Shown here: in pieces, positions 18,123-44,588 of the stretch
How positions within the stretch are numbered: position 1 is the first letter of the stretch
How the letters are laid out: every line of letters starts with the position of its first letter
Assembly: GCA_014799395.1 (NCBI GenBank)
Contig: JAAVID010000003.1
Coordinates: 63,105 to 127,104 of the forward strand
Length of the DNA stretch: 64,000 nt
Direction of reading: 5' to 3'
Source of the DNA: Oscillospiraceae bacterium
GTDB taxonomy: Bacteria > Bacillota > Clostridia > Oscillospirales > Ruminococcaceae
Notes under the pieces: generated by a model
The model's database searches: none
Seen by the model: the letters and a program-made list of their open reading frames with translations, nothing else
What the model was told of the DNA's origin: nothing
Program-made: the position numbers and the translations under genes

Positions 18123-19715
18123 TCAAAACGTAATAAGCCCGCGCTCATCATAAACGCTATTCTCGGCGACTCCTCCGCATTTCAGCGCCCTGTCAAGCGC
18201 CATTACCGTCGCGACAGCTCCGTCGATCTTCTCGGTGGATTTCTCCTTATCGGGCTTGATATTGCCCGCGGGGTCCTTACGGATACAAATATTATCCATA
18301 TTCCAGCGGAGAATAGGGTGTCCGCCGTGCGCGAGCCGTTGGCTCAACGCAAGATTCATAAGTTCCTTTGTCGGCGGCGACATATCCTTGAAGCCCTGAC
18401 CGAAACGAATAACGGTAAAACCGAGTTTTTCAAGATTCTGAACAACGTGCTCTGCGCCCCAGCGGTCAAACGCTATCTCGCGGATATTGTACTTTTGCCC
18501 GAGTTCTTCAATGAATTTCTCTATGTACTCATAGTGAATTACATTGCCCTCCGTCACCTGCAAAAAGCCCTGTCGCGCCCATAGGTCATAAGGAACATGA
18601 TCGCGCCGCACTCTAAGGTCAAGCGTTTCCTCGGGAACCCAGAAAAACGGCAGTATCTGATACTTGTCGTCCTCGTCCTCGGGAGAAAACACCAGCACAA
18701 AAGACGTAAGGTCGGTCGTCGTCGAGAGATCAAGCCCGCCGTAGCACGCCCGACCCTCAAGATTTTTGCAATCGATTGCAAAAGCACATTTATCCCAGAT
18801 CTCCATCGGCATCCAGCGAACCGCTTGCTTGACCCACTGATTAAGTCGGAGCTGACGGAATGCGTTTTCTTCACTCGGCTGTTGCCGCGCCGATTCATAA
18901 GCCGCTCGGACCTTATCGATATTGATTGTCTTTCCGAGCGAGGGATTAGCCTTTTTCCAGACTTTCGGGTCGGACCAGTCGTCGTTTTCGTCCGCGCCGT
19001 AAATTACGGGATAAAACGTCGGGTCGATTTTCCGACCCGCGATTATATCCTTAGCCTTTTGATGAACCTCGTAGCAAATGCTGTTGGTATTGTCGCCGGC
19101 GGTGGTTATCAAAAAGAAAAGCGGCTGCATACGCGCGTCGCCCGAGCCCTTTGTCATTACGTCGTACAGCTTGCGGTTCGGTTGAGCGTGAAGCTCGTCG
19201 AATACTACGCCGTGAACGTTGTAGCCGTGCTTACTCGCGACCTCCGATGAAACGACCTGATAGAAGCTGTTTGTCGGCTTATATGTGATCCTCTTTTTGC
19301 TGTCCGAGATAATACAGCGCTTTTTCAGCGCGGGGCAAAGATTTACCATTTCTTTCGCGACGTCAAAGACTATCGCGGCCTGCGCTCTGTCTGCGGCGCA
19401 GCCGTAGATCTCCGCGCCCTGTTCGCCGTCGCCGCAAAGCAGCAGCAAAGCAATGGCCGCCGCGATCTCGGATTTACCGTTCTTTTTCGGTATCTCGACA
19501 TAAGCGAAATTGAACTGCCTGTATCCGTCCTTTTTTACAACGCCGAAAATATCGCGGATTATCTGTTCCTGCCAATCGAGGAGCTTAAAATGCTTTCCGT
19601 ACCATATACCCTTGGTATGGCAGAGATTTTCAATGAATTCAACGGCAAAATCGGCTTTTTCCTTGTCGTACACCGATGATTTGAGTTTGAATTTAGTCGG
19701 CTTATACTTTGCCAT
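18123..19715 (-). CDS. terL: Terminase large subunit
   Basis: Walker A IPKKNGKS, Walker B VVFDELH, GGLDLS, IAFDRWG, KIDGAVA. Confidence 0.97.
   Translation of the reverse strand: MAKYKPTKFKLKSSVYDKEKADFAVEFIENLCHTKGIWYGKHFKLLDWQEQIIRDIFGVVKKDGYRQFNFAYVEIPKKNGKSEIAAAIALLLLCGDGEQGAEIYGCAADRAQAAIVFDVAKEMVNLCPALKKRCIISDSKKRITYKPTNSFYQVVSSEVASKHGYNVHGVVFDELHAQPNRKLYDVMTKGSGDARMQPLFFLITTAGDNTNSICYEVHQKAKDIIAGRKIDPTFYPVIYGADENDDWSDPKVWKKANPSLGKTINIDKVRAAYESARQQPSEENAFRQLRLNQWVKQAVRWMPMEIWDKCAFAIDCKNLEGRACYGGLDLSTTTDLTSFVLVFSPEDEDDKYQILPFFWVPEETLDLRVRRDHVPYDLWARQGFLQVTEGNVIHYEYIEKFIEELGQKYNIREIAFDRWGAEHVVQNLEKLGFTVIRFGQGFKDMSPPTKELMNLALSQRLAHGGHPILRWNMDNICIRKDPAGNIKPDKEKSTEKIDGAVATVMALDRALKCGGVAENSVYDERGLITF
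18766..18781. promoter_or_regulatory. Palindrome TTGCAATCGATTGCAA copy 1 (inside terL)
   Basis: Perfect palindrome, 20 bp with flanks. Confidence 0.7.
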
Positions 19716-19754
19716 TTCGTCACCACCGTAAATCTCCTTTCCGCGAATATAAAA

Positions 19755-19771
19755 GCCGCTCAAAAAGCGGC
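19755..19771 (-). terminator. Terminator-like hairpin just upstream of terL
   Basis: - strand GCCGCTTTTTGAGCGGC followed by TTTTAT. Confidence 0.55.
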
Positions 19772-19918
19772 ATAAACTGTACGACAGACCGCACGGAGCG
19801 CGGCGGTTATTCAGACAATATCAATAGTTGGCTCTGTGTCCGTTCCGCACTCCGAACGGCTGCGGTCTGTACCCGCAAACGCGGATACACAGCGCGGCCG
19901 TTCAAGCCGTCCTGATTT

Positions 19919-19934
19919 TTGCAATTGATTGCAA
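19919..19934. promoter_or_regulatory. Palindrome copy 2 (TTGCAATTGATTGCAA), intergenic upstream of terL
   Basis: Direct sequence match. Confidence 0.7.
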
Positions 19935-19942
19935 AACCGATT

Positions 19943-20152
19943 TTATTTCGTCCTCAGATGTATGATCTGCTGTAATTTGTTGTGAATAGTCTCCGCCTGG
20001 GATTTCCAGCGCTCGATCATCTCGATATGTACCGTAGTTTCGGTATCGATCTTGCCTTTGCGCAGTTCCTCAATCTGCAAGCCGTATGAATACGCCTGCT
20101 TGACCGCTAACGTATCAAGCGCTATTATTTCCTCGTCCGTGAATTCGGGCAT
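19943..20152 (-). CDS. Hypothetical protein
   Basis: ORF track, coupled to VRR-NUC gene. Confidence 0.65.
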   Translation of the reverse strand: MPEFTDEEIIALDTLAVKQAYSYGLQIEELRKGKIDTETTVHIEMIERWKSQAETIHNKLQQIIHLRTK

Positions 20153-20514
20153 TACAATTTTCCCTCCAGATAGTTTATAATATCGCGCCGCGCCTCGTCA
20201 AAGCCAAAGCATATACACGCCGCGTAACCTCTCGCCTCCAGAACCGAAAGCCATTTCGCCTGATTATCTGTGGGCTTGCCCTTTGGTGCTTTCAGCTCGA
20301 TAAACAGTCCGTGAAATCCGCCGCGAGGAACAGGAAGAAACAGATCGGGAACTCCCGGCTTTACTCCCATGCGCTTAAACCTAGCCGCCTCGCGCGCGTC
20401 ACGCTTTCCGCCGTTTGGGATATGAAAGAGCGACATCAGCTCGGGATATTTGCCCGACTGCATTGCCGCCCAATCAAAAAGATGTATCTGCTCGGTGTCC
20501 TCAATATGGTTCAT
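20152..20514 (-). CDS. VRR-NUC domain nuclease
   Basis: HIPNGG.R..GVKPGVPDL..FIELK..QAKW. Confidence 0.92.
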   Translation of the reverse strand: MNHIEDTEQIHLFDWAAMQSGKYPELMSLFHIPNGGKRDAREAARFKRMGVKPGVPDLFLPVPRGGFHGLFIELKAPKGKPTDNQAKWLSVLEARGYAACICFGFDEARRDIINYLEGKL

Positions 20515-20723
20515 TATTCTGCACCTCTTACATTATCTTTAAAGCGCGCCAAATTCCCACAGCAAGGACACTTGCTATAAAAACATATGGAGCAATTTTC
20601 CATATAGGGATCGTACTCGCCCTTATCGGCTTCAAAAACACAGCCGCACTTGTCGCATTCAAAACGCTTTAAGCAACTTACCGGCTTAAGTCTGTTAAGG
20701 TCTCCCTCTTTGATAATTGTCAT
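20514..20723 (-). CDS. Small Zn-ribbon protein
   Basis: CDKCGC and CPCCG pairs. Confidence 0.7.
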   Translation of the reverse strand: MTIIKEGDLNRLKPVSCLKRFECDKCGCVFEADKGEYDPYMENCSICFYSKCPCCGNLARFKDNVRGAE

Positions 20724-21181
20724 GTCGCACAACCTCCATAGCAATTAAACGGCGATCCCATTACCAAACCCCACGAACCAAGCCCCATTCTGTTCATTAT
20801 AATGCGGTGCAGTTTTGCTATAACGCTTTGAACCGTTTCGTCATTACGACATGAATTATTCGATTGAGTAAAAAGACTTAATCCGTATGCCGATAAAGCT
20901 GTATAGAGTGTTTTCATCTCCTCGTCTGAGAACTCGTAACCGCCGCCCATCTCCGAAACAGCTTTTGCAACAACCTCACGCGCACTGAGAACCTTCGATT
21001 TAAGCGCGTCTAAGTTTTCAAGGTTCTCATCAAGAGCATTCAATACCGCACGCCGTTCTTTTTCTACGAGAACAAACTTTTCGTTTGTCTCCTCAATCCG
21101 CTTGGCCTGTTCGTCGGTGACCTCCACCTCGTAGATCACACCGTTAAGCTTTAATGCTGCTTTCATTTGCATATCCTCCAA
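20720..21181 (-). CDS. Hypothetical protein
   Basis: ORF track; GGAGG RBS. Confidence 0.65.
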   Translation of the reverse strand: MEDMQMKAALKLNGVIYEVEVTDEQAKRIEETNEKFVLVEKERRAVLNALDENLENLDALKSKVLSAREVVAKAVSEMGGGYEFSDEEMKTLYTALSAYGLSLFTQSNNSCRNDETVQSVIAKLHRIIMNRMGLGSWGLVMGSPFNCYGGCAT

Positions 21182-21199
21182 ATTTATTTGATGTAACCG

Positions 21200-21484
21200 C
21201 TATCTCTTATCAACATAATCCCTTACTATTGCAGTTACTTCGGATCTGTCGATAAATTTATCACAATCCTTACACGGGCAATGTCCGAGCCCCTTGTTGA
21301 AATAGGAGCAAGTCGGAACGTGAGCGCCCATATCCGGAATGCTTTCAAAGAAATAGCAATTTTCTTTGTGTTCCTGAATCAAATTCCCGAAACAAGCCCC
21401 ACAGCCGGGAATATATTCACCAACCGCGGACGGATAGCGAATCTTATCGACAGGCAATACGCCTTTCACAAAATTGTCCATCAC
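21200..21484 (-). CDS. Cys-rich hypothetical protein
   Basis: ORF track; GAGG RBS. Confidence 0.65.
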   Translation of the reverse strand: MMDNFVKGVLPVDKIRYPSAVGEYIPGCGACFGNLIQEHKENCYFFESIPDMGAHVPTCSYFNKGLGHCPCKDCDKFIDRSEVTAIVRDYVDKR

Positions 21485-21501
21485 ATTACCTCACTTATTA
21501 T

Positions 21502-23028
21502 TCATATGTTCATATCGCTTACATCGATTTTTCCGCTCATAAGGTCTGGGAGCATTGCGTCGCGCAATTCTGCCAAAAGGCGGTTTTCTTCGGAGTTTAA
21601 ATATGAAATATGCTGCTCCCACATCAACAAGAAAAAATTGATAATGTTGGACAAGATTTCCTTGTCTTGATTTTCAATTTTAAACTCATTTTTGTTTTTT
21701 GATAACGTTATATACCGTCGGCTTTCATATTTTCCTCCCAAAATTTCAAACGTTTTGTTAAGATCAATATCGCTCGCCTTTTCCTCTTGAGATACCAGTT
21801 TGTCTAATTTGAGGCTCTTTGCCAGCGTTTCGTTACAAGTGATCTTAATTACACTGCGCTCTCTGGAAATACGGTTAATATCCGCCATAATATCCTCATA
21901 TGGGCGGTGTTGAGCCTCACGTCGCTCAAATTTAATATATCTTGACGGAACCAATATGTATTCTTTTTCAGCAATTTCTTCCGTGTTCACCTCGCGGGAA
22001 AACTCGGCAATATCCTCGCACTCGCCGCATACGCTTTCAATCACATCATCGGGAAGAATGTTGACGGTCTTGTGATACGTCCTGTTCTCGTGGCTAGCGC
22101 CTCCGAACTGCCCGTTTTGATCGCGCTGCTCTTGTACCGCTTTGCGGCGGCAATCGTAAAATTTTACTGTTTTGTTGCTGGCAGAGAACACAATAATGCA
22201 AGTCGGAATAGATGTCGCCTCAAACATCTTATCGGGGAGAGTTATAACGCGCTCGATCATACCCGAATTTATCAGATGTTCACGCATATCTTTCTCAACA
22301 TCAGATGACAAAACCCCGTTCGGGAGCACAAATGCACACCGCCCGTCCTGTTTCATTCTGCTAAGAGCAGTCAGAACAAACGCGAAATTAGCATTCGAGC
22401 TCGGCGGAATAGGTTTGCCTTGAAATCTTTCATCAGCCAACAGCGGCGCGGGAGCTTCCCACTTGATGTTATAAGGCGGGTTTGAAACAACTTCGTCCGC
22501 CACAATATCGGGAACGTTGTTAATTACTGAAATATCCGAAAAATTTTCACCGCTTATGAGTCGATAACACTTAACGATTTCCAATGTCAGCGCATTTCGA
22601 TTTATAACATAGCCTGAAATGTTGCGAACCGCCAAATTGAAAAGCAATATCGGTATTACTCTATCGTCAAGCTCCTCGCAAATAAAGGTTTTTGCTTTAT
22701 TTTCTACCCACTTCTGAATTGTCAGTGCTCCGCTCCCAGCACAAAGATCATATACGGTATCGCAATTTGTCCGCGTTTGCGCAGCGCATAACTTGGCAAT
22801 GCTCTTTGGCGTATAATCTTGACATTTCTCTTTTCGGTCTGCATAATGATATTGGAAAATCTTTTGCAGATTATCGGTTAATAAATCGCCGCCTACTAAC
22901 TCCACATAAGCGGACAGAATGTCATTTTTACGCTCTGAAAACAGTATATTCCCGATAGATTCAAACAAATTATCCTTTTCTGCGCCAATAAGGTTTAAAA
23001 AAGAATTTGTTAATTTAGACAATTCCAC
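21502..23028 (-). CDS. Orphan N6-adenine DNA methyltransferase (HsdM-like)
   Basis: QDYTP, YDLCAGSGAL (SAM binding), VVSNPPY (catalytic), FVLPNGVL. Confidence 0.92.
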   Translation of the reverse strand: MELSKLTNSFLNLIGAEKDNLFESIGNILFSERKNDILSAYVELVGGDLLTDNLQKIFQYHYADRKEKCQDYTPKSIAKLCAAQTRTNCDTVYDLCAGSGALTIQKWVENKAKTFICEELDDRVIPILLFNLAVRNISGYVINRNALTLEIVKCYRLISGENFSDISVINNVPDIVADEVVSNPPYNIKWEAPAPLLADERFQGKPIPPSSNANFAFVLTALSRMKQDGRCAFVLPNGVLSSDVEKDMREHLINSGMIERVITLPDKMFEATSIPTCIIVFSASNKTVKFYDCRRKAVQEQRDQNGQFGGASHENRTYHKTVNILPDDVIESVCGECEDIAEFSREVNTEEIAEKEYILVPSRYIKFERREAQHRPYEDIMADINRISRERSVIKITCNETLAKSLKLDKLVSQEEKASDIDLNKTFEILGGKYESRRYITLSKNKNEFKIENQDKEILSNIINFFLLMWEQHISYLNSEENRLLAELRDAMLPDLMSGKIDVSDMNI

Positions 23029-23031: not shown

Positions 23032-23907
23032 CTACCCTCCCCTTTGCTTAAGCAGCCGCTCCATAGGATCGTCCGAATTGCCGAGAACGCTCTCGCCGCA
23101 GCTTTCCTTGACGATCTGATATATCTGATACCAAATTTGATTGACTTGTTTCATATAATCCTGCGACATACGCACATACGGCGACGCCATTGCCTGCCCC
23201 GTCGTAGGGTGCTTGGCGAGAAATCCGCATTCGGATATCAACTCCTCTGTCTGTATCCAACGCGCTACCGACATAGCGTACTGTTCGACAAGTTGCTTTG
23301 AGACCGCACCATCGCATTTGATCTTTTTAAGCCATTTCATAGTCTGCGCAACGATACGATCCGCCTGTAAACTCTTACCGCATTGCTGCTGCGCCCGAAG
23401 AAACTCGTCAACGGGCGGAACGTCCGCCCCCACAAGCTCGGGAATATCATTATCCGCCGTATCAGCGGACTTTTTAACGCTTTTCCCAATCGCCGCCGAA
23501 GATACCGATTTCTCCTGCACCTTTCCCGCCGACTTTGCAGTCGAAGTCACCGACGATTTCGCTTTTGCCGCCGTTTTAGACCTTGAAGTGGATTTCGTTC
23601 CGGAAGATGTTGATTTTTCCTTGGTTTTTGACGTTGTTTTAGACTTTGAGGTCGTTTTCGAGGCGGTTTTCGGTGATTTTTTGCCCGTTTTGACCTCTTT
23701 TCCGGACGTTTTTGACCCCAAATCGGCACTTTTTGCGCACTTTTCGGCACTTTTTTTGCCGTTTTTGACCTCAAAATCGTCCTTTTCAGCGTCAAATTCT
23801 TCGTCAAAATTGATCAAAGGAGGCGCTTTTTTGGTTGTTTTCGGTCCAGAACCAATTCGCGCGCCGCCCCTTCTGGTGCCGTCTTTAGCCACTTTTTCTA
23901 CCCCCAT
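23032..23907 (-). CDS. terS: Terminase small subunit (P27-like) with long Lys/Ser/Thr-rich insertion
   Basis: AKDGTRRGGARIG N-terminus; YAMSVARWIQ.E, GFLAKHPTTG, DDPMERLL. Confidence 0.88.
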   Translation of the reverse strand: MGVEKVAKDGTRRGGARIGSGPKTTKKAPPLINFDEEFDAEKDDFEVKNGKKSAEKCAKSADLGSKTSGKEVKTGKKSPKTASKTTSKSKTTSKTKEKSTSSGTKSTSRSKTAAKAKSSVTSTAKSAGKVQEKSVSSAAIGKSVKKSADTADNDIPELVGADVPPVDEFLRAQQQCGKSLQADRIVAQTMKWLKKIKCDGAVSKQLVEQYAMSVARWIQTEELISECGFLAKHPTTGQAMASPYVRMSQDYMKQVNQIWYQIYQIVKESCGESVLGNSDDPMERLLKQRGG

Positions 23908-24490: not shown

Positions 24491-24916
24491 TTATTCGTCA
24501 ATGTGTTTCTTGATGTACCGGGAGCACATGAAACGGACACTATCGAATGTGTTTCTGCCGCCGAGCTCGTCGGCGATCGTGCCCCAGTCCTTTCGGTCGT
24601 AAAAACGCTTTTCAAATATCATGCGCGTAAGGAGATCGTCAATGCTGTCGATATAAAGCTCGACGCGGGCTTTCTGACGCCTGTATTCGGCTCTCTGTGC
24701 GCGTATCTTGCCGTATTTCTCGATATTGTCTATGTACGCGTCCTCTATTCTGTTGCGGTGTGAGGGCGTGGAAACAACGCCGTCAAGTCTCGGCGAGCGA
24801 TACATTCCCGTTTCTATTTCTTTCAGTCTGTCGTCGCAGTCTTTTATAGCGACCTCAAGCAAATAGTAGCTGTTGAGCTCTTTATACTGTTTTTCATACA
24901 ATTCCTTACGCGTCAC
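24491..24916 (-). CDS. ArpU/RinA-like late transcription activator
   Basis: Last gene before packaging module; IFEKRFYDRKDWGTIADELGG C-terminal HTH. Confidence 0.75.
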   Translation of the reverse strand: MTRKELYEKQYKELNSYYLLEVAIKDCDDRLKEIETGMYRSPRLDGVVSTPSHRNRIEDAYIDNIEKYGKIRAQRAEYRRQKARVELYIDSIDDLLTRMIFEKRFYDRKDWGTIADELGGRNTFDSVRFMCSRYIKKHIDE

Positions 24917-24950
24917 TTCATTTTCCCCCTTGATTTTTTCCGTTGACCGC

Positions 24951-25052
24951 TTGACTTTTTCTCGGCAATGCGGTATAATAGGAGTGAGGGTAAGTCTCAT
25001 ATAATCCATATTTTCCTTTAGCCGCTCGACTGTTGCCGCAGTCGGGCGGTTT
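24951..25052 (+). promoter_or_regulatory. Antisense sigmaA promoter + hairpin unit A
   Basis: TTGACT-17-TATAAT (24951-24979); hairpin 25021-25049. Confidence 0.65.
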
Positions 25053-28425: not shown

Positions 28426-29391
28426 TCACACAACATACTTTTTATGGCTCGCCTTGACGTTCTCCATATCCGACTGCGCGTAAATCGTAGTAGTGCCGAT
28501 AACGGCATGACCCAGCATTTTTTGAACCTGGTCTATCGGCATTCCGCGGTTGAGCGCGATTGTCGCCGCCGTTCTCCGAAAACGGTGCGGATGACATTTT
28601 TCAACGCCCGCCTTTAAGCCGAGTTCACGGAAAAGCTGCTCTACCGTTCCGTGTTTCAGCCGCTCGTGCGGTTTTCTTAATCCAACAAACAGCGCGGGAT
28701 CATTATCGGTTCTCTCGGATAAATATTCGCTTATTGCGAGCTGAGATTTGGCGTTCAGATAACAAACGCGCTCTTTGCCGCCTTTGCCGAATACCGTTAT
28801 TTCGTTTCCGTCTATGTTTTTACGCTCCATTCCGCAAAGCTCGCTCACGCGACAGCCTGTGGAATACAGCGTCTCCAATATCGCAAGGTCGCGTTTGTTT
28901 CCGACGCTTTTGCGGAGCTTTTCAAGCTCGATTTCGGAAAATGCCTTTTTAATGCGCTGATCGCGCTTTATGGGCTTGACGTTCCTTGTCGGGTCTTTTT
29001 CTATGTAGTCCTCGGAGGTACACCAGCCGAAAAAGCTTTTCAGAACGTGCAGCTCGTTGTCCTGCGATACTTTGCTCAATCCGTCACGTTCGGAACGGAT
29101 AGCGATATAGTACCGTATCACGTCGGAAGTTACCGTCTCGAGATTGCAATTAGCGTCGGTGAAAAATCTTTTCAGAACGCCCCGATAGTACGTTATTGTC
29201 CGCGGAGAACAGCCCTCGACGTGCTTTGTGACGAAAAACATTTGCAGAGCACGGGCGCGTTTATCCTCAATCACGGCCAGCTCGTTTGACTTTTTGGTGA
29301 TCTCATAGCCGTTAAGCACTATGCGCAGATTGTTTTCCGTCATTCCGCCCAGAGCAGTTACCTCGCGGATTATGTCCTCTGCTGAGCTCAT
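28426..29391 (-). CDS. Tyrosine recombinase (XerD-like, SAM-like N-domain)
   Basis: STGCRVSEL, GKGGKER, HPHRFRRT, LGH..IGTTTIY. Confidence 0.93.
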   Translation of the reverse strand: MSSAEDIIREVTALGGMTENNLRIVLNGYEITKKSNELAVIEDKRARALQMFFVTKHVEGCSPRTITYYRGVLKRFFTDANCNLETVTSDVIRYYIAIRSERDGLSKVSQDNELHVLKSFFGWCTSEDYIEKDPTRNVKPIKRDQRIKKAFSEIELEKLRKSVGNKRDLAILETLYSTGCRVSELCGMERKNIDGNEITVFGKGGKERVCYLNAKSQLAISEYLSERTDNDPALFVGLRKPHERLKHGTVEQLFRELGLKAGVEKCHPHRFRRTAATIALNRGMPIDQVQKMLGHAVIGTTTIYAQSDMENVKASHKKYVV

Positions 29392-29771
29392 TCCGTTTCC
29401 TCCCGTTGATTCTCCTTGCCGTCCATTACCGCGCCGCAGTGAGGGCAAAGCTCATAATCCAAACCGCGTGAATACGTTGCGTCACTTACCTTACGGCTGC
29501 ATTCCGAGCATTCGTAATTCATTGCCACGCCTCTCCGCTTATCACTGTCGTCATCATAAAGCGGTATCCAATGTCCGTATACCACGGCGCGAGCGTCAGC
29601 GGCAGGGAGAGCGTTTACGCAATTTAAAATATACGCGGCGGTGTCATTAGCGCCCTCCATGCTTTCCGGCGAATATTTTAGATCATAGTCGTGATCGTCG
29701 TCAATCTTTCTTTGACACTCGACGAGTATCGCAATAACATCGGCTTTTTTCACAAATTCCGTATCAGCCAC
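29388..29771 (-). CDS. Hypothetical Zn-ribbon protein
   Basis: LPAADARAVVYGHWI, CSEC, CPHCGAVMD. Confidence 0.75.
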   Translation of the reverse strand: MADTEFVKKADVIAILVECQRKIDDDHDYDLKYSPESMEGANDTAAYILNCVNALPAADARAVVYGHWIPLYDDDSDKRRGVAMNYECSECSRKVSDATYSRGLDYELCPHCGAVMDGKENQREETE

Positions 29772-30500: not shown

Positions 30501-31104
30501 TTCCCTCCAGTTTCAGCTGTTCGTCGATCATCTCGCGCATTTCCGAGAGATGATAAATATACTTGTCCTTGACGGCGTTGATGATCCCGCCCAGTTCGTC
30601 AAACAAATCGTGAAGTGCCTCTTCGGTGAATTTAACACCCAGAATGACCGCCTCGGGCAGGAATCCCTTTTTAACGCAAAGCGCCGTGTGAACACCGTGC
30701 GACGTGCGGAATGTCCGCATAAAGTAAGTGGTCTGATCGTCGGCGACTATCGGCTTGAGATACGCGCCGTCGATAAACAGCAGTTTTGTTCCCGTCTCGA
30801 ATATCAGATATTCCTCGTTTTTGATAATAACCCGTTTGGGCGGCGTTTCTATCTGAATATCGGTGCTGTTGTGCTCGGCAAATAAATCGTCGGTAACTCT
30901 CGGCTCGGTAAAAGAGATCTCCCTGATGTTCTTTTCGGTATAATCCAGCATTGACGCCAGACTGTCAAAGGACATAGGCTCGATTCCCGCGAGTATGTAA
31001 AACGCGCTGCTGTCGCCGATCCACTGCTCGCCGCCCTCCGTCGTATGCGACGCCAATTCTTTTTGCGAACGGCATATCGCCGCTACGCGCTTTTTCTTTA
31101 TCAT
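30487..31104 (-). CDS. Conserved phage hypothetical protein
   Basis: ORF track; QWIGD..AFY, YLKPI. Confidence 0.75.
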   Translation of the reverse strand: MIKKKRVAAICRSQKELASHTTEGGEQWIGDSSAFYILAGIEPMSFDSLASMLDYTEKNIREISFTEPRVTDDLFAEHNSTDIQIETPPKRVIIKNEEYLIFETGTKLLFIDGAYLKPIVADDQTTYFMRTFRTSHGVHTALCVKKGFLPEAVILGVKFTEEALHDLFDELGGIINAVKDKYIYHLSEMREMIDEQLKLEGNDEV

Positions 31105-31415
31105 GACAACGCCTCCTTCATTTTTCCGACCATAGCCGTTATTGCCGCAACGGGCTTTTCGCGCTCCTCCTCGGGCAGCGCGTTCAATGCTTCCAATGCT
31201 GCGTTAAAATTGCGCAGACATTCCTCAACATGGAATTTCACACGCTCCTTTTGCGTGCTGGGAGGCGTCTTTTTTGCAAGCGATTGCAAAGCGGCGTTTT
31301 CGGTTTCCAGCCGCTCGAGTTTCTCCGCGTTCGCGTTGATCCGGCTGTCAAGAAATGCCGCGAGGTTTTCACGCAAGTCTGTGTCCTGCGCCTTTGTCAT
31401 CTTGTTGTTGTCCAT
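31101..31415 (-). pseudogene. Probable internally deleted DUF3102-type protein
   Basis: LDSRINANA (domain start) joins directly to the C-terminal coiled coil. Confidence 0.45.
31274..31289. promoter_or_regulatory. Palindrome copy 3 (TTGCAAGCGATTGCAA), intragenic
   Basis: Direct sequence match. Confidence 0.65.
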
Positions 31416-31418: not shown

Positions 31419-31685
31419 TTACGCTCCTATCCTGATTCGATTTTCCGTATCGCCCGGTTCGAGCGACCATGCGCGCTCCTGCTCCTCGCTGATATCCGCA
31501 CAGCCGCCCACAGCGAGCTTTCTACCTTTGTCGTGGCAGAACTTCCAGCAGCCCGCCAGCGTCAGCTTTTTGCCCTCGATATCCTCCTCGTTCATCGTGG
31601 TGAGGATAGGCTCAATATACGCGAGTGTGCGTTTCTCGAACGCTGTTTTTGCTTCTCCGAGTATCTTTCTTGTTTTATCTGTCAT
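31419..31685 (-). CDS. PcfK-like protein, probably truncated or fused
   Basis: KKLTLAGCWKFCHDKGRKLAVGGCADI; no PcfJ gene follows. Confidence 0.55.
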   Translation of the reverse strand: MTDKTRKILGEAKTAFEKRTLAYIEPILTTMNEEDIEGKKLTLAGCWKFCHDKGRKLAVGGCADISEEQERAWSLEPGDTENRIRIGA

Positions 31686-32518
31686 GGTGATTTTCCTTTC
31701 CTGCGTACCGCTTTATAGAGCGATACATAATGTCTGTATTTTTTCTTTCTGACGAGCTTGAACCGCGCGAACGGTCTGCCCGTGATCTCGTTTGTGCCGA
31801 TGTAGTAACTGACCAACGCCCAGCCTATGTACAACCGCTCGACGTACTTTTTCACCTCGTCGTTCCGCGCTGCGTCCTGCATCTTGCGCATACGTTTCTT
31901 GGATACGCTGTTGTCATCGGTAATCGTATCGGGACGGAGCAGGTTTGTTGAGCAGTTCCACGATCGCTCGAACTTGGCCGCTCTCTTGAATTCCTTTGAG
32001 ATGTACTCGCACAGCGCCTCGCAAAGCTCTCCGCCGTCATCGGGCTGCATACGCCGCGATTGAGTAAGACCCAGCTTCCACAGCCGCTCAATATCGTCAC
32101 GGTTGATACCCGTACCGCTGTTGATGACAACATGAAAGTGCGGCCGCGTTCCCTTGCTTCTGCCCTCGTAGACGTAAAGGTACTTCAAATCCAAACCGAG
32201 TTTAACATAAAGCCGCCGTAAACGCTTGATGTAGTTGGCGAAGTCCTTCTGTGCTTGCTTTTTGTTGGTGGGATCGGCAAACGTCAATGTTACGACGTAA
32301 TCTCCCGCACGGAAATTGTTGTGAAACAGCCAGCGGAAGTATTTCCTGGAGTACTCGTCGTTCATGTCCTTGACCTTTGGTGGAGAAGCGCGGGTTCTGC
32401 TTCGACGGGGTTTTCTTACCGCCTCTTTTTCCTCCTCGGAGTACTCGTACCAATCGACCTCCTTGTACCGACAATTATGTCGGCTGAGAGATTTTTCCCG
32501 AATGAAGGTATGCTTCAT
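31682..32518 (-). CDS. HUH rolling-circle replication initiator (inovirus Gp2/G2P-like)
   Basis: Motif I TLTF, motif II HFH, motif III YISK. Confidence 0.85.
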   Translation of the reverse strand: MKHTFIREKSLSRHNCRYKEVDWYEYSEEEKEAVRKPRRSRTRASPPKVKDMNDEYSRKYFRWLFHNNFRAGDYVVTLTFADPTNKKQAQKDFANYIKRLRRLYVKLGLDLKYLYVYEGRSKGTRPHFHVVINSGTGINRDDIERLWKLGLTQSRRMQPDDGGELCEALCEYISKEFKRAAKFERSWNCSTNLLRPDTITDDNSVSKKRMRKMQDAARNDEVKKYVERLYIGWALVSYYIGTNEITGRPFARFKLVRKKKYRHYVSLYKAVRRKGKSP

Positions 32519-32648
32519 AAATTACGTATCACTCTCCTCTGAAAATCCAAAAACGGCAGAGTTGTCAATACTCATTACAAGCCCGTCAAGCGGCAGTGTG
32601 AACGCCTTTTTTTACGGCGTTCTTGCCGCATTTTTTTGAATTTTCCTA

Positions 32649-32765
32649 TTGACTTTTGAGCGGGAAAGTGATATAATATTTATAGGGTGATTTTGCAATC
32701 GATTGCAAAATGAATTTTTTCACTTTCCTGCTTTGTTCCCGCCGGCTTTGGCGGGGATTTTTTTA
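32649..32765 (+). promoter_or_regulatory. Antisense sigmaA promoter + terminator unit B
   Basis: TTGACT-17-TGaTATAAT (32649-32677); hairpin 32737-32757 plus T run. Confidence 0.7.
32693..32708. promoter_or_regulatory. Palindrome copy 4, just downstream of the unit B -10 box
   Basis: Perfect 20-bp palindrome 32691-32710. Confidence 0.7.
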
Positions 32766-33605
32766 TGCCTTTTCCGGGAAAAGACAACGCACGATCGACG
32801 TGCCGCCGAAATCGGTGAAATGCTCGCACTTAAAACAATGTTCTTGACAGACCGATGTCTTATATTTCGGACATTGCGCCCAGCTGCCGTTTTCTTTGTG
32901 CGTTTTTCCGCAGATCGGACACGGAAGCGGAAGCGTTTTTTCGCCTCGCGTTACCCTTTTCAACAAATAGTTGTAATATTCCTCGAGGAAACGCTTTAAC
33001 GCCGTTTCGCCTCCGTCAAAGCCCGCGCTGTACAGCTTGCCATCGAGGGCTCTCACGCCGAATATCTCTCGGTCCCCTATCTGTTTGCGACAAAGAGCGA
33101 TCTTTGAGAACTTCGCCTCGCCGCCCGGTTCTCTCGGCGGTGCAGCGCACGCGAATACCGTTTCCCACTCCGAAGTATTCGCCACGACTGCCGTTTTCGG
33201 CGGCTCGGGGGGCTCGTCCTGCGGAGCTTCGGGAATATTCTCCGGGTATCTTCTCGCCAGGTCGGCAAGCTCCGCGCCAAAGCCTTGACTTTCGCTGCCA
33301 AAGCTAATATTATATTTATCGCACAGCTTGTGCAGTTCGTTATATAAATCGCATTTCGGCTTATCTTTCGGCACGTCGGGAACTTCTTGAGACTGTATAT
33401 ACAATGGTTTCAAAAGGCTGAACTCCGTGCGTTCGCTGCCTTTTTTCAATATGTGGTTTATAGCCCTTTTTGCACCGACTTCACTTTTGTACCTATGCAC
33501 TCGGCTATCGAGCGTTCCCATAACAGGGCGATCATCCGAATCATCGCCATAATAATAAACATTATCCTTACTGTCATAAACTACCCATTTGTTTTCTATC
33601 AGCAT
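32763..33605 (-). CDS. Hypothetical protein with C-terminal Cys/His cluster
   Basis: ORF track; CPIC..H..C..C..HC..C. Confidence 0.7.
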   Translation of the reverse strand: MLIENKWVVYDSKDNVYYYGDDSDDRPVMGTLDSRVHRYKSEVGAKRAINHILKKGSERTEFSLLKPLYIQSQEVPDVPKDKPKCDLYNELHKLCDKYNISFGSESQGFGAELADLARRYPENIPEAPQDEPPEPPKTAVVANTSEWETVFACAAPPREPGGEAKFSKIALCRKQIGDREIFGVRALDGKLYSAGFDGGETALKRFLEEYYNYLLKRVTRGEKTLPLPCPICGKTHKENGSWAQCPKYKTSVCQEHCFKCEHFTDFGGTSIVRCLFPEKA

Positions 33606-36887: not shown

Positions 36888-36975
36888 TTGACAAATCGCC
36901 TCCTGTATGCTATAATAAAATTGTCTTATTAGGTTTGCCGCTTACCGAGTTCGCTCGGGGCGGCGTTTTTTATTT
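36888..36975 (+). promoter_or_regulatory. Antisense sigmaA promoter + terminator unit C
   Basis: TTGACA-17-TGcTATAAT (36888-36916); hairpin 36940-36968 plus T run. Confidence 0.7.
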
Positions 36976-37652
36976 TGTCCACTGGTTCGCCATTGCCTCG
37001 GCGATACCCGAAAAGGTTTTTGAACGTATTTTTGCAGTTAGAGGGTTATTCCAACCGATAATTTTACCAGTTTCATCTGTTGCATATAAAGCCGCGCCAG
37101 AATAAGCCTTACCACCTGAATATTTTTTATCGGGTACAACGATATTTGTAGGTTGCAATTTCGGCAAGCCTTTCAACCATAAACATGTTTTCTTACTTAC
37201 CTTGTGCCCGTATTCATAAGGCTGAATAATCTGATCCGCCTTTCGGTAATGAGTATTCATATAACCAATAGGGTTTTCAACAGCAATTTTATTACAATCA
37301 GCATTTATGAATTTCATAAAAAATTCCGCTGCTTTGTTGCGTTCTTTAAATCGCTGCAATGCTTTTCGCCGTATTTCTTCACATTAAACCACCTGTTTCC
37401 GCTTACTGTCAGATATGTACACGGCGGGTGCGCTATCAGCAAATCCCATTTTCCGTCGATTTTATGAACCGAGCCGTCCATTGTCGTAAACTCGCAGTTG
37501 CCGTTGATGATCGGCAGAACGTCGCCGAGAATATGCCATTTGGGGTGACCGCCCGACGGCTTCTGAATATCCGCGCTGTACGCCTCGTGACCGCGCTCGC
37601 GCATTGCTTTACACACCGTCTGGCTCTCCTCACATGCTATCAGTATCTTCAC
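36970..37652 (-). pseudogene. C5-cytosine DNA methyltransferase-like gene split by a frameshift
   Basis: ILIACEES and AHPPCTY in 37314-37652; IAVENPI, KKTCLWLKGLP, RSKTF in 36970-37359; shift at A4 run 37363-37366. Confidence 0.8.
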
Positions 37653-40007: not shown

Positions 40008-40041
40008 AATTTCCTCACTTTCCTTGCTTTCGCAAAACAAT

Positions 40042-40197
40042 TTATTGTTGATTTTCGCCCTTGTGGTCGGTGACGAGCCACGAGAGCGATACCTTGAACA
40101 CGTTCGCTACCATTGCCAATTCGGAGAACGTCCACAGTCTTGGATTTCGCTTGCGGCGGTTGTAGCAATCGCGTTTCATTCCGAGCTTGTCCGCCCT
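40042..40197 (-). pseudogene. N-terminally truncated XRE-type HTH gene
   Basis: ADKLGMKRDCYNRRKRNPRLWTFSELAMVANVFKVSLSWL with in-frame stops immediately upstream. Confidence 0.55.
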
Positions 40198-40215
40198 TTA
40201 AACTTCCTATTCAAA

Positions 40216-40413
40216 TTACTTCACGCCCCGAACCGCTTTTCGCGCCTCGTCCTCAGCCCATATTCTAGCAATATTATCCAGATGTTTCCGAATTTTTGCG
40301 GGATCGTGTTCAACGTAATTATCCGCTATATAACCTATAACTCGTCCGTTCTCATCGTAACAAGTCTGTACTATGTGCGGTTCATCAAGCGGCTTAATTC
40401 CTCTTTTTGCCAA
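40216..40413 (-). CDS. Small hypothetical protein
   Basis: GGAGG RBS, TTG start. Confidence 0.65.
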   Translation of the reverse strand: MAKRGIKPLDEPHIVQTCYDENGRVIGYIADNYVEHDPAKIRKHLDNIARIWAEDEARKAVRGVK

Positions 40414-40479
40414 ACGATCACCTCCCGATTCATTCTATGCAAAGACGGATTGTACAGTTTCCGCCGTCAGCATCATAGT

Positions 40480-40761
40480 CTACGCGTAGCCGCAGGTCGT
40501 TCCGATCTGCTCCCAGTAGTCGCCGTGGTTTCCGTATTTGTAGATCTCGCCGTGATGTGGTGTCTCCGCGATAACCGTTACCGTGCCCCACTCTTTGCAC
40601 ACCTTGACCTTGCTCAACGGCAGATCGCTGCCAATGTAGGTGTCTACCTTTTTGTCGCGGATAACCTTTATGAAGTCGCTAAGTATGACCTCGCGCGGGT
40701 TTTCTATCTTTTTGGGGAATGTTTCATTCATTAGGGTGTCCTCACTTTCCTTGCTTTTCAC
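40480..40761 (-). CDS. Hypothetical protein
   Basis: ORF track; start possibly 40731. Confidence 0.65.
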   Translation of the reverse strand: MKSKESEDTLMNETFPKKIENPREVILSDFIKVIRDKKVDTYIGSDLPLSKVKVCKEWGTVTVIAETPHHGEIYKYGNHGDYWEQIGTTCGYA

Positions 40762-40788
40762 CGACCTATGCGGTATAATAGTCGGCGT

Positions 40789-41113
40789 TTATAATACTTC
40801 CGTAAGAATGCGGAAATCCACGAAAGAGTTTTTGTCAATAGTAATTTCCACAGGTTTTCCAACAAGTTCGGAAACATAATTGACCTTTGCCGCTTTTAAA
40901 ATCTCCGCTACCTTTTCAACGGTAGATGTGATAGTTCCTTCACGACTATGTTCATTCCATTTACATGCGCTGGATATGTTAACGGTGTATTTCCCCCCGT
41001 CCATTACTCCAGAGCCGCTCATAGAAAAGCCCAACTGAATACCGATTAAGAAAGGATGGTCCTTAACAGTGCCGTACTCTGCAAAGTCGATTTTTCCTAA
41101 AACTTTTTCCATT
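40789..41113 (-). CDS. Hypothetical protein (MEKVLGKIDFAEYG...)
   Basis: GAGGTG RBS within repeat copy. Confidence 0.7.
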
Positions 41114-41222
41114 GGTCTCACCTCGCTTTCGTTTTGGGTTCAGCCGCTCGGGGGCGGTTAGGCTTTTCGTCTTGTATTTCACCGACCTTTGTGCTATAAT
41201 GAAAGCGAAAGGGGGTGAGTTT

Positions 41223-41405
41223 ATGGAAAAATCCTATTGTCCGTTAGTGGGCGGTGCCTGCCGCAAAGACTGTATGTTCCGCCTTTCCAATTCGGACGCG
41301 CTGGAGCTTAACAAGAAATGTCAGCTCTTTAAGGTCGTTGAGAATGTCGAGTATCTCATTGACCATGATATGCTTACAGATTGTCGTCAACATAGCGATC
41401 AATAA
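41223..41405 (+). CDS. Small Cys-containing moron protein (60 aa) with own promoter
   Basis: TTGTAT-17-TGcTATAAT at 41172-41200; GGGGGTG RBS. Confidence 0.75.
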   Translation: MEKSYCPLVGGACRKDCMFRLSNSDALELNKKCQLFKVVENVEYLIDHDMLTDCRQHSDQ

Positions 41406-41553
41406 TCTTTAATGCCTCATCGTATGCCACCGTCGTCGCGTGTAAAACGGTTGTTTCCAAATCCCTTATCAGCCACTTCACATCTTCAGCGGTGGCATTG
41501 TATTTTTTAAGAACCTGCAATATTTCTGTCACCGCTTTAATTCTGTCAGTCAC
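41374..41553 (-). CDS. Small hypothetical protein (59 aa, GTG start)
   Basis: GAGGTG RBS in repeat; overlaps the + strand gene tail-to-tail by 32 nt. Confidence 0.65.
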   Translation of the reverse strand: MTDRIKAVTEILQVLKKYNATAEDVKWLIRDLETTVLHATTVAYDEALKIIDRYVDDNL

Positions 41554-41597
41554 GCTCTCACCTCGCTTTCGTTTTGGGTTCAGCCGCTCGGGGGCGG

Positions 41598-41816
41598 TTA
41601 GGCGGTTGCGGGTTCGCTCTTGGTGAAGAGGTAGATGAAATCCATCTCGGGGAAAAGATTGATTTTTATGTTCATAGCCTGTTCAACCGTGAACCCACAC
41701 TCCGAGCGCCCATTGATCTTCGATCTGAATGTCGGCTCGGGTATTCCCGTCGCGGCTGCCGCCGCAGTTACCGATATTCCTTTTCTTTTCAGTTCCCTGC
41801 TAAGATTTTCGTACAT
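41598..41816 (-). CDS. Cro-like HTH regulator
   Basis: MYENLSRELKRKGIS..AAATGIPEPTFRSKING..FTVEQAMNI. Confidence 0.88.
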   Translation of the reverse strand: MYENLSRELKRKGISVTAAAAATGIPEPTFRSKINGRSECGFTVEQAMNIKINLFPEMDFIYLFTKSEPATA

Positions 41817-42060
41817 TCTAACACTTCCTTTCTTAAATTGTGTCCGCATTTGCGGACTTTGTACATTCATTATATCCCATTTTGCGTACATTGTCAAGTG
41901 GTTTTGTACAAATTTGCGTACTTTCTCCATTTTGTACATAAATGCGTTGATTTTTTGTACATTTGTACAGTTTTGCGTACATTTCTTATATAACGCGCGG
42001 AAATGTATTGACATTCGGATTTTTATATGGTATAATCATAAATAGTAAGGGGGTATTTAA
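41817..42060. promoter_or_regulatory. Lysis/lysogeny switch with divergent promoters and operators
   Basis: Repeated TGTAC..TGCGTAC half-palindromes; TTGACA..TATAAT toward cI at ~42008-42036. Confidence 0.8.
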
Positions 42061-42429
42061 TTGGGCTTTGGAAAGAAACTAGAGGAAAAAATGTCCGCAA
42101 AAGGCTTGAAACAAGCCGATATAGTCAGAGCGACGGGCATTTCAAAAACAACGTTAAGCAGCATGATCAGCCGAGATAATACAAAGGTTGATGTAGAAAT
42201 GTTTATCCGTATCTGCGATTTGCTTGAATGCGATCCTATGGATTTTGCAAGTGAAGTCCGACAAACGGCTAAAGAACCGGCTATGTATACCGCCGACCAA
42301 GAATATGTGATAGAAACTATGAATGAACTGAATGAGGACGGTATGAAAGAGCTGGTCAACTACTGCGAATTTCTGCGAATGAAAGGGTGCTTTAAAAAAG
42401 TGCCCGATAAGAATGCTTCCGAGGCGTAA
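42061..42429 (+). CDS. CI-like XRE repressor without peptidase domain
   Basis: LKQADIVRATGISKTTLSSMI HTH; divergent from cro; 122 aa. Confidence 0.88.
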   Translation: MGFGKKLEEKMSAKGLKQADIVRATGISKTTLSSMISRDNTKVDVEMFIRICDLLECDPMDFASEVRQTAKEPAMYTADQEYVIETMNELNEDGMKELVNYCEFLRMKGCFKKVPDKNASEA

Positions 42430-42481
42430 ATAAAAAAGCCGCTCCAAGGAGCGGCAAATAACATCTGAGGAGAACGACAAA

Positions 42482-43396
42482 ATGAACAAATCGAAAAAAG
42501 CACTTTTGGCGGCGCTGTTTTGCGCTGCGGTTTTAAGCGGTTGTACGCCTGGGGAAACTTCGGGCTCAAATATAAGCACAAGCTCCGATAACTCAACATC
42601 TTCAAGTTCCGAGCAGTCATCAAGCACAAAATCCGAGGAAAGCTCAACGGACAGCGAACCAGCTCCCGAAAGCTCCGTCCCCGTTAAAGAGGCAAATATA
42701 AAAGTCGCGTCCTGGAAACTGTCAACGGATTACAGCGGCAAGGACGTGCTCGTTATTGAATACGAATGGACGAACACTAAGGACGATACCGCGAACTTTA
42801 TGACAACGTTCATTGATAAGGTCTACCAGAACGGTGTCGAGTGCGACAGTGGCGTTATAGGCTGTGATGATGTTGACTCCCAAAAGCAGATGAACGACAT
42901 CAAGCCCGGAGTTACTTACAATGTAGCGGTCGGTTATCTGCTCCAGGATAAAACCAATGTGAATGTTGTTGTAAATGAATTCCTCGGCGACGAGCTGTTG
43001 AACGAGACTATCGAGCTTGGCGGCGGCGAGGGTGCGGCTCCCGGCGGAGAGATCGCCGAGACTTCGATCAAGATCGCAAACCATTCGATTTCAAAGGATT
43101 TTGAGGGTGCCGACGTGCTTGTTGTAAATTACGAGTTCTACAACGGCGAGGACAGCGCAAAAGGGTTCAGCTTTATGTTTACCGATAAGGCGTTCCAGAA
43201 CGGCGTAGAATGCGACAGCACGGTCATAGGCTGTGATGAAGTCGACGTTCAGACGCAGCTCAACGAGATACAACCCGGGGTAACGTATACGGTGTCCGTC
43301 GGGTATCACATTGAGGATATGTCCGAGGTGGAGATCGAGGTAAAGGATTTGTTCGGTACTAAGGATTATCTGAACGAGAAGATTTCTCTTTCGTAA
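42482..43396 (+). CDS. Lipoprotein with two DUF5067-like domains
   Basis: Lipobox LSGC, Ser-rich linker, duplicated (Y/F)QNGVECD..IKPGVTY.V.VGY. Confidence 0.8.
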   Translation: MNKSKKALLAALFCAAVLSGCTPGETSGSNISTSSDNSTSSSSEQSSSTKSEESSTDSEPAPESSVPVKEANIKVASWKLSTDYSGKDVLVIEYEWTNTKDDTANFMTTFIDKVYQNGVECDSGVIGCDDVDSQKQMNDIKPGVTYNVAVGYLLQDKTNVNVVVNEFLGDELLNETIELGGGEGAAPGGEIAETSIKIANHSISKDFEGADVLVVNYEFYNGEDSAKGFSFMFTDKAFQNGVECDSTVIGCDEVDVQTQLNEIQPGVTYTVSVGYHIEDMSEVEIEVKDLFGTKDYLNEKISLS

Positions 43397-43401
43397 ACAA
43401 T

Positions 43402-43431
43402 AAGCGGCTGTTCGTTATCAAAACAGCCGCT
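43402..43431 (+). terminator. Hairpin terminator after lipoprotein gene
   Basis: agcggctgtt..aacagccgct. Confidence 0.6.
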
Positions 43432-43433
43432 CT

Positions 43434-43449
43434 TTGCAATTGATTGCAA
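43434..43449. promoter_or_regulatory. Palindrome copy 5, abutting ATG of TM2-HIRAN gene
   Basis: TTGCAATTGATTGCAA ends 2 nt before the 43451 start. Confidence 0.7.
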
Positions 43450-43450
43450 A

Positions 43451-44542
43451 ATGACTTTTGAGGAGATTTACAAAATGACCGATAAAAATAAAACGCTGAC
43501 ATTGATATTGTGTGTGCTTTTCGGCTATCTCGGTATGCACCGCTTTTATGTAGGAAAAAATAAATCGGGAATAGTATGGCTTTTGACAGGCGGGCTTTGC
43601 GGAATAGGCTGGATTATTGATATAATTTTAATATGCACGGATAAGTTTGACGGGGTTACGGGAACGCAAAACACATCTGTATCTCAACCTATCCAACAAC
43701 CTTTACAATCGAAGAGCGCGTCCATACCGCAACCTGTTCAACCGCCAACTGCTCCGATGCAGGAAACGGTTCAGGTGCAAACACCACAGCCGCAAGCCGC
43801 TCCGATACCGAAAGCTGTTCAAGTGCAAATACCACAGCCGCAAACTGCTCCAATACCTAAAGCCGTTCAAGCACAAGTACCACAGCAGCAAGCTGCTCCG
43901 ACTTTGGTTTCCACCTATGTGCCTATGCCCTGCTTTTTACCGATCACCGACGGCAAGGGGTTAAAATACGAGTATGAAAACGATTTGTGCATGATAAATA
44001 CTACAGCGGCGGAGCTTAACGCAGAATTGGGTGGAGAGGTCACGTTCAAGCAAGAACCCGAAAACGCCAATGACGCAAACGCGGTCGCAGTATGGCAGAA
44101 CGAACGCAAGCTCGGCTATATCTATCGCGGACAAAGTCAAGAAATGGCTAACCGTTGGTTGAAAAGCAACGATCCATTAATGGGATTTATAAGCCACGTG
44201 GATATTGTGCAGAATAAGGTCAAGTACAAAATCGGATTTTACAGACCGCTTGAGGAAATGGAAAAGGGTAAATTCAAGCTCGCGGGTATACGGCAAAAGG
44301 ATAATTTAGGCGATCTGCGGCAGGATAATTTAGAATGCTGCAAAGAGGGAGAGACGCTTTCAATTGAGTTCGACGACGAAACGGAAAAATATATCGTTTG
44401 GGGCGGTGGCGGCGAAATCGGCGTGCTGCCGAAAAAAGCAGAAGATTTTCTCGGTTCAAAAGACAGAGCCGTCGGCATTCTGACAAAAATGGAGTGTGAC
44501 GATGACGGCAAATATAACGCCGAGGTTGAAGTGTATATATAA
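43451..44542 (+). CDS. TM2 (NINE) membrane protein + P/Q repeat linker + tandem HIRAN-like domains
   Basis: FGYLGMHRFYVGK..GIVWLLTGGLCGIGWIID; EPENANDANAVAVW..KLGYI; second repeat GEIGVLPK. Confidence 0.8.
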   Translation: MTFEEIYKMTDKNKTLTLILCVLFGYLGMHRFYVGKNKSGIVWLLTGGLCGIGWIIDIILICTDKFDGVTGTQNTSVSQPIQQPLQSKSASIPQPVQPPTAPMQETVQVQTPQPQAAPIPKAVQVQIPQPQTAPIPKAVQAQVPQQQAAPTLVSTYVPMPCFLPITDGKGLKYEYENDLCMINTTAAELNAELGGEVTFKQEPENANDANAVAVWQNERKLGYIYRGQSQEMANRWLKSNDPLMGFISHVDIVQNKVKYKIGFYRPLEEMEKGKFKLAGIRQKDNLGDLRQDNLECCKEGETLSIEFDDETEKYIVWGGGGEIGVLPKKAEDFLGSKDRAVGILTKMECDDDGKYNAEVEVYI

Positions 44543-44551
44543 CACAATATC

Positions 44552-44567
44552 TTGCAATCGATTGCAA
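44552..44567. promoter_or_regulatory. Palindrome copy 6, 21 nt upstream of integrase ATG
   Basis: TTGCAATCGATTGCAA. Confidence 0.7.
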
Positions 44568-44588
44568 AACCACATTTGAGGTGATATA

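Follow-up and report, generated by a model that had tools for sequence, protein, structure and literature searches.

A 20-bp palindrome at gene junctions of an Oscillospiraceae prophage and its relatives: a candidate operator or roadblock site

Why does one short palindrome recur six times in a single prophage, close to the genes for integration, replication and packaging? This question is raised by a 64,000-nucleotide stretch of the genome of an Oscillospiraceae bacterium (GenBank assembly GCA_014799395.1), referred to here as the window, which covers positions 63105-127104 of contig JAAVID010000003.1 (C3) in a 2.76-Mb host assembly of 112 contigs. Lists of open reading frames (ORFs) and scans against Pfam and PHROGs place a siphovirus-like prophage at about positions 1 to 46200 of the window. 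The control circuits of gut Oscillospiraceae phages are almost unknown, and the palindrome, referred to as the box, may be a site for a dimeric DNA-binding factor.

A pattern scan of the window for TTGCAANNGATTGCAA returned six exact matches (Table 1), and the mean number in 100 dinucleotide shuffles was 0.00. Three copies with a TCGA centre also match on the reverse strand, and the spacing between paired TTGCAA motifs in the window is exclusively 4. A preliminary description of the sequence had reported six copies, four intergenic and two intragenic, as a non-random occurrence. The scan located all of them, and the four intergenic copies fall in a phage genome that is 94 % coding and thus only about 6 % non-coding. 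That the three non-palindromic copies point the same way is not significant. The arrangement in three pairs, with the members 1.1-1.4 kb apart and about 12 kb between pairs, was rejected as meaningful because the pair at the replication gene rep is 4.3 kb apart in a related IMG/VR provirus (G061).

The architecture of the box was derived from 64 non-redundant copies, taken from the window, congeneric genomes and IMG/VR records among the matches listed. Exact-pattern scans of IMG/VR gave mostly chance matches, and these records became usable only after a filter on the centre. The consensus is TTTTGCAA-[T/G][C/T]GA-TTGCAAAA, a 20-bp palindrome with a partly free centre of 4 bp. The palindrome of 16 bp described previously is real, but the conserved unit is longer, as the flanking TT/AA is kept in 73-89 % of the copies (89 % at +-1 and 73 % at +-2). 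Conservation ends abruptly at +-3, and complementarity past +-2 equals the shuffled expectation. Since the 12 arm bases served as the search pattern, the invariance of the arms is partly imposed, but a mismatch search showed few degenerate copies. About eight genuine one-mismatch variants were found in 370 kb of related phage DNA, including C4>A (three times), T11>A/C and A6>T, and none is compensated on the opposite arm. The centres comprise TTGA/TCAA (23 copies), GCGA (22), TCGA (11) and others (8), and their orientation is independent of the direction of the downstream gene (12 versus 8). As RNA, the box would form a weak hairpin of -5.9 to -6.7 kcal/mol, with A residues after it.

Several known types of element were compared with this architecture. 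A lone box lacks the stable GC-rich stem and the directly following U tract of an intrinsic terminator. With no host copies, no pairing past +-2 and uncompensated variants, it also differs from mobile palindromes of the repetitive extragenic palindrome (REP) or bacterial interspersed mosaic element (BIME) kind. On inspection, a sigma-54 promoter (TGGCAC-N5-TTGCA) was rejected because the box lacks the GG and its spacing falls one base short. A sigmaA promoter with TTGCAA as its -35 box was rejected as well, since only the copy at the integrase gene int has a -10 box at 17 nt and transcription would then start inside int. An attP/attB-like site of the serine integrase was dismissed because the attR region at 46175-46230 is unlike the box. 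Lastly, a strand-specific 3' extension (TTT at +8 to +10 in 6/6 window copies) turned out to be a symmetric, weakly A-rich or T-rich flank over the 64 copies.

The distribution of the box points to phages of one genus. The 18 kb of host sequence in the window are free of copies, as the preliminary description had found, and the remainder of the 2.76-Mb host assembly outside the prophage likewise holds none, apart from one unrelated TTGCAAAGTTTTGCAA. The genome-wide count it called for therefore yields the six prophage copies only. Among 36 genomes of the same genus, 17 carry the box in 1-4 copies each and 19 do not, and 24 genomes from 24 other families of the order have none. The reversed pattern, used as a control, gave 0 matches everywhere. 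An apparent family-wide enrichment of TTTGCAA-N4-TTGCAAA in 300 family genomes was discarded as background, as the matches outside the genus lie in host ORFs with random centres. The earlier suggestion of a host-wide chromosome-organisation or uptake motif is refuted by the lack of copies outside the prophage and by the boxless congeners. Within the 36 congeners, the box is present in 13/13 genomes with a Rep homolog and in 4/23 without (one-sided Fisher test, ~1e-6). The Rep/serine-integrase phage lineage is thus the chief carrier.

Other carriers exist besides this lineage. Mu-like transposable phages, which occur in 32/101 genomes of the same genus, have exactly one box copy, 3 nt past a ner-like gene, with some prophage copies showing one mismatch and some being boxless. 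A 125-aa ORF is the sole protein these phages have in common with the prophage in the window. A prophage in the congener G008 carries the box as well, and in G018 one is flanked by a host gene and an Abi-like defence gene. The latter locus (L148, contig C7 of G018, ~10000-13100) contains Abi-like and large TerB-like genes beside plsY/gpsA in the congener chromosome, with the box at the junction, and resembles a small defence island.

The positions of the box are conserved among related phages. G061, a 40-kb relative whose TerL, Rep and integrase are 88 %, 86 % and 42 % identical to those of the window, keeps 5/6 box positions. Its copies lie 21 nt before int, about 176 nt before rep, in the homolog of ORF 31101-31415 (exact), after the VRR-NUC gene upstream of the terminase large subunit gene terL, and in terL (one mismatch). 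At homologous sites in phages of about 70 % DNA identity, the arms are fixed and the centre drifts between TCGA, GCGA, TTGA and GCAA. A box after the VRR-NUC gene is present in G061, L144, L145 and L289, and one is located 18 nt before the terL ATG in G008. The layout of copy 4 upstream of rep is repeated in G061, L147, L151, L164 and L203, and at least five further lineages have the box 14-28 nt ahead of the integrase start.

For the two intragenic copies, a check of conservation at synonymous positions had been proposed. In the ORF 31101-31415 homologs of L143, L147 and L160-L162, the box is present with 1-2 mismatches, and the codons TTG-CAR-TCG-NNT-GCA are kept throughout, which implies a constraint beyond the protein sequence. 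The terL copy has one mismatch (TTGCAGTCGATTGCAA) in the 88 %-identical G061 gene and is absent from the 73 %-identical terL of L146. There, FAVNEDK replaces FAIDCK, so that this copy is indeed written into a variable segment, as had been supposed.

Most copies are located at gene junctions. According to simple ORF calls, which were used for all related loci, 27/38 congener copies are intergenic, typically 3-18 nt from the upstream stop and 10-40 nt from the next start. Often, a U-rich stretch and a Shine-Dalgarno sequence (TTTTGAGGTGA) come after the box, ahead of genes that are unrelated to each other. Among the genes that immediately follow are six serine integrases, terL, a holin-like gene, a K+ channel gene, TM2-HIRAN, and genes for membrane proteins or lipoproteins. 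In addition, about eight independent copies lie 10-21 nt past a sigmaA-type -10 box, corresponding to about +3 to +14 of the promoter, including those at the int promoter of G009 and at a conserved antisense promoter upstream of rep. In the window, the described distance of 21 nt between the last copy and the integrase ATG was confirmed. The copy assigned to the TM2-HIRAN start codon does abut an ATG at 43451, but translation more likely starts at the ATG at 43476, which has a GAGGAG ribosome-binding site. Of the preliminary reading, the view that the copies are non-random, mark phage control points and are most simply read by a trans-acting factor is supported.

Boxes also coincide with boundaries between modules. 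Homology blocks begin or end within a few nt of a box in the window, L136, L147, G061 and the Mu-like phages, and the HIRAN gene is homologous to L147 from 43454 onwards. Between TM2-HIRAN and the serine integrase there is a cargo slot (window 44543-44588; L147 8750-9622; G061 1575-2431), which is empty in the window. In G014 (L147), it holds a K+ channel gene with a TTVGYGD signature and a box on either side. In G061, a TIR-like gene fills it, and of the two bordering boxes one is exact and one has decayed.

Copy 4 is part of a further arrangement upstream of rep. As the preliminary description had noted for a sigmaA promoter near rep, the copy lies just downstream, starting 15 nt past the -10 box of TTGACT-17-TATAAT at 32649-32677 (+). 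The predicted RNA of about 80 nt would start near 32684 with the box as its 5' hairpin, followed by a strong terminator at 32735-32758. G061 matches the region 32649-32766 at about 95 % identity, and distant Rep phages retain both promoter and terminator, whether a box is present or absent. Judged by its sequence, this region resembles a counter-transcript control of rolling-circle Rep, here inside a tailed prophage. A database search with the antisense promoter sequence returned mostly unrelated promoters. The box-bearing antisense RNA was rejected as a universal reader, since the G066 group makes the RNA without a box and carries its boxes elsewhere.

The explanation preferred here, with a probability of roughly 0.4, is that the box is an operator or roadblock for a symmetric, dimeric, sequence-specific DNA-binding factor that would recognize it as a double-stranded site. 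A site for a dimeric protein is suggested because the arms are one helical turn apart, the centre is tolerated, the boundaries are sharp, the variants are uncompensated and the box is used in either orientation. The protein would contact the two 8-bp arms as half-sites, their centres one helical turn apart, and the 4-bp centre would remain largely uncontacted. If bound in the short gap from a stop codon to the following ribosome-binding site, or at promoter positions +3 to +14, it could block RNA polymerase. Such a roadblock may insulate tightly controlled or harmful genes from read-through, among them the integrase, terminase and holin-like genes, membrane genes and morons (accessory cargo genes), as well as the antisense RNA ahead of rep. 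The candidate reader could be encoded by the Rep/serine-integrase phage lineage, by the host genus or by a resident prophage. Sequence pattern, distribution and positional conservation were observed directly; from these, we infer protein binding, the blocking function and the possible origins of the reader.

Several observations weigh against this explanation. The centre is not wholly free, as 77 % of copies have T at its first position and 77 % have C at its second. About 10/64 copies form the apex of longer terminator-like hairpins, for which an explanation at the RNA level is easier. At the 5' end of the antisense RNA, L160 has no box but a shorter palindrome (TTTGCGTTACCGCAAA), which keeps the hairpin potential and loses the half-site spacing. 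Furthermore, BLAST clustering and tblastn found no reader protein common to all carriers. The protein shared by the complete Mu-like carrier G063 and the phage in the window, 125 aa long, has no assigned function, and the G008 prophage is without Rep and most early genes. The only regulators found by PHROGs and Pfam are CI, a Cro-like protein and an ArpU/RinA-like late activator. Given this lack of a protein shared by all carriers, the reader may come from the host genus or from a resident prophage.

An alternative that is doubtful but deserves consideration is that the box acts as RNA, as an 8-bp hairpin near ribosome-binding sites or 5' ends that stabilises or insulates cistrons, marks processing or pairs with the antisense RNA. 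This would suit its typical position 14-28 nt before start codons, ahead of the U-rich stretch and Shine-Dalgarno sequence, its place as the 5' hairpin of the conserved antisense RNA, the copies that tip longer terminator hairpins, and the different, shorter hairpin at the same place in L160. However, the stem is kept as a sequence rather than as a pairing, since mismatches are uncompensated and mostly not G-U compatible, and most copies show no pairing past +-2. The hairpin is weak, and as the loop changes with the direction of transcription, a loop-recognising reader is unlikely. The intragenic copies are far from ribosome-binding sites, and the boxless antisense RNA of the G066 group, which keeps its boxes elsewhere, also speaks against such a role. 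A function as a cassette junction, either as a linker for swapping modules or as the footprint or target of a small mobile element, is improbable. The flanked K+ channel and TIR-like genes, the edges of homology blocks and the box at the edge of the Abi-like gene in a host chromosome would all be expected of a junction, but the variable centre limits uninterrupted identity to 8 + 8 bp, which is too short for homologous recombination. The geometry matches neither tyrosine recombinase sites, with their 6-8 bp overlap, nor serine att sites, with attR being unrelated, and the tyrosine recombinase at 28426-29448 is absent from other carriers. Moreover, intragenic copies that are conserved over long distances are no junctions.

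The strong association with Rep, together with boxes on both sides of rep, might indicate sites for the HUH Rep protein itself, such as origin-like, termination or auxiliary rolling-circle sites. This is very unlikely, given that most of the six copies lie far from rep instead of forming one rep-adjacent nick site, that boxes are found in the Rep-less G008 prophage and in the Mu-like phages, and that the box upstream of rep is varied or missing in L161-L163 and the G066 group. A likelier origin is GGCTTGTAATGAGTATTGAC, about 70 nt upstream of rep, which is better conserved and resembles a CTTG nick site. Least probable of all, to the point of being nearly negligible, is a host repressor of the LacI/CcpA type that ties integration, replication and packaging to the carbon source, as the preliminary description had proposed. 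A LacI-family gene does adjoin the prophage, and the 4/6 window copies with an NCGN centre fit the loose consensus TGNAANCGNTTNCA of catabolite-responsive elements (cre). The central CpG is a hallmark of LacI-family operators, but it is missing in the other 2/6 window copies and in at least 23/64 non-redundant copies, and the centre drifts at homologous sites. All eight cre-like sites of the host are of the TGWAA..TTWCA type and none has TGCAA. Host copies with 1-2 mismatches are not enriched over control palindromes, exact ones do not occur, and 19/36 congeners lack the box; the proposed coupling to carbon status is not supported.

A wider role is conceivable, though rather unlikely. The 20-bp palindrome could be a common regulatory currency of the mobile elements of the genus, with one reader and a place before genes that are kept silent. 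It would span the Rep/serine-integrase siphovirus, the Mu-like phage, morons and defence cassettes, and the reader would be encoded by the host or supplied by a resident prophage. This would allow cross-regulation or exclusion between phages and make box-carrying cassettes plug-and-play. The box sits at integrase, terminase, lysis and cargo genes and is common to unrelated phages of one host genus. Should its reader be genus-wide, or supplied by a prophage to others, it would represent a new mode of phage cross-talk and possibly a tool for gene insulation in hard-to-engineer anaerobes. As a short cis-element, it provides an experimental handle in the form of a pull-down bait, a reporter insulator, or a marker for related phages and cargo-gene slots.

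Table 1. Box copies and neighbouring features of the prophage (window coordinates; a dot denotes no strand).
Feature	Position	Strand	Remarks
Box copy 1, TCGA centre	18766..18781	.	inside terL; encodes C-A-F-A-I-D-C-K (FAIDCK)
Box copy 2, TTGA centre	19919..19934	.	intergenic; 8 nt past stop of 69-aa ORF after VRR-NUC; 155 nt upstream of terL
Box copy 3, GCGA centre	31274..31289	.	inside 104-aa ORF 31101-31415 (-); encodes LQSLA
Box copy 4, TCGA centre	32693..32708	.	175 nt upstream of rep; about +8 of antisense promoter
Box copy 5, TTGA centre	43434..43449	.	directly past terminator hairpin 43402-43432; 26 nt before likely TM2-HIRAN start 43476
Box copy 6, TCGA centre	44552..44567	.	9 nt past HIRAN stop; 21 nt before serine-integrase ATG 44589
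Terminase large subunit terL	18123-19763	-	one box within, one upstream
terS	23032-23907	-	
ArpU/RinA-like late activator	24491-25009	-	
Tyrosine recombinase	28426-29448	-	
HUH rolling-circle Rep (REP_ORF2-G2P)	31682-32518	-	Pfam E = 2.9e-16; box copies 3 and 4 on its two sides
Consensus sigmaA-type promoter, predicted RNA of about 80 nt and terminator	32649..32766	+	antisense to rep leader
CI/Cro switch	41800..42040	.	divergent consensus promoters; about 8 repeats TTTGCGTACA/TTTGTACA; no box
CI, helix-turn-helix protein	42061-42429	+	Pfam
Large serine integrase	44589-46172	+	commonest gene directly downstream of box

The genes around the box copies are those of a tailed temperate phage. The minus strand encodes lysis, tail and head genes, terL, VRR-NUC, an N6 methyltransferase, terS, an HNH endonuclease, the ArpU/RinA-like late activator, the tyrosine recombinase, HUH Rep, SSB and the Cro-like gene, whose product matches phrog_4583. 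The plus strand encodes cI, a lipoprotein gene, the TM2-HIRAN gene and the large serine integrase. A megablast search of the prophage against the INPHARED collection gave no match. Some features were observed in passing. The genes terS and terL are separated by the N6 methyltransferase, small ORFs and VRR-NUC, and the 155-nt gap upstream of terL (19764-19918) is GC-rich and hairpin-rich, with blocks kept in G061, and may be a cos region. At 36970-37652, two overlapping ORFs, the first with a PPC or ENP motif and its partner with the other, look like a small DNA methyltransferase in two halves, which may reflect a frameshift. The minus-strand sequence CTTGACGGGCTTGTAATGAGTATTGACAACTCTGCCG (~32560-32600), about 70 nt upstream of rep, is kept in all Rep relatives examined; it is like a CTTG nick site and may be the double-strand origin or the rep promoter. 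In the host flank, one of the eight cre-like sites of the genome, TGAAATCGTTTACA, is found near ~56338.

The phage has a second set of repeated sites, which differs from the box. Its CI/Cro switch has perfect divergent promoters at 41897-41869 (-) and 42008-42036 (+), and the TTTGCGTACA/TTTGTACA repeats, with a spacing of about 16 bp, are presumably the true immunity operators. No box copy is present at this switch or near cI, and CI is not conserved among box carriers. Because the switch operators differ and CI varies among carriers, the reader of the box is probably not the CI of this phage.

Comparisons with known systems of dispersed sites place the box between several of them. It resembles cre in its palindromic form and, for the copies with a CG centre, in the fit to the loose consensus, but it has no conserved CpG, its flanks bring it to 20 bp, the cre-like sites of the host use other half-sites, and there is no host regulon. 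The KorB OB sites of plasmid RK2 and the parS sites are palindromes of 13-16 bp that occur in several dispersed copies. As with these, some box copies are located at promoters and others far off or within genes. A Pfam scan of the ORFs at 19943-42429, with the late genes partly scanned, found no protein of the ParB/KorB family. The conserved inverted repeats (CIRs) of the Streptomyces phage phiC31 reportedly measure about 17 bp, occur in many intergenic copies and are bound by the repressor c, whose operators they are said to be, with one of them autoregulating the repressor gene. The box shares with the CIRs the form of a conserved inverted repeat in the 17-20 bp range with many intergenic copies, but, unlike them, has no copy near cI.

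The stoperators of mycobacteriophage L5 and the Cluster A phages are proposed to stop both the initiation and the elongation of transcription (PMC9283540; PMC6550527). Like the L5 sites, the box occurs as many near-identical short sites across a temperate phage, mostly in short intergenic spaces and also at promoters. L5 sites, however, are asymmetric 13-mers that are bound by a monomer and have one orientation relative to transcription, whereas the box is an orientation-free 20-bp palindrome. They are the operators of the immunity repressor itself, with more than 20 per genome, while the box is absent from the CI/Cro switch and present in 1-6 copies per genome. In contrast to the L5 stoperators, the box is common to phages with unrelated repressors and even to unrelated genomes.

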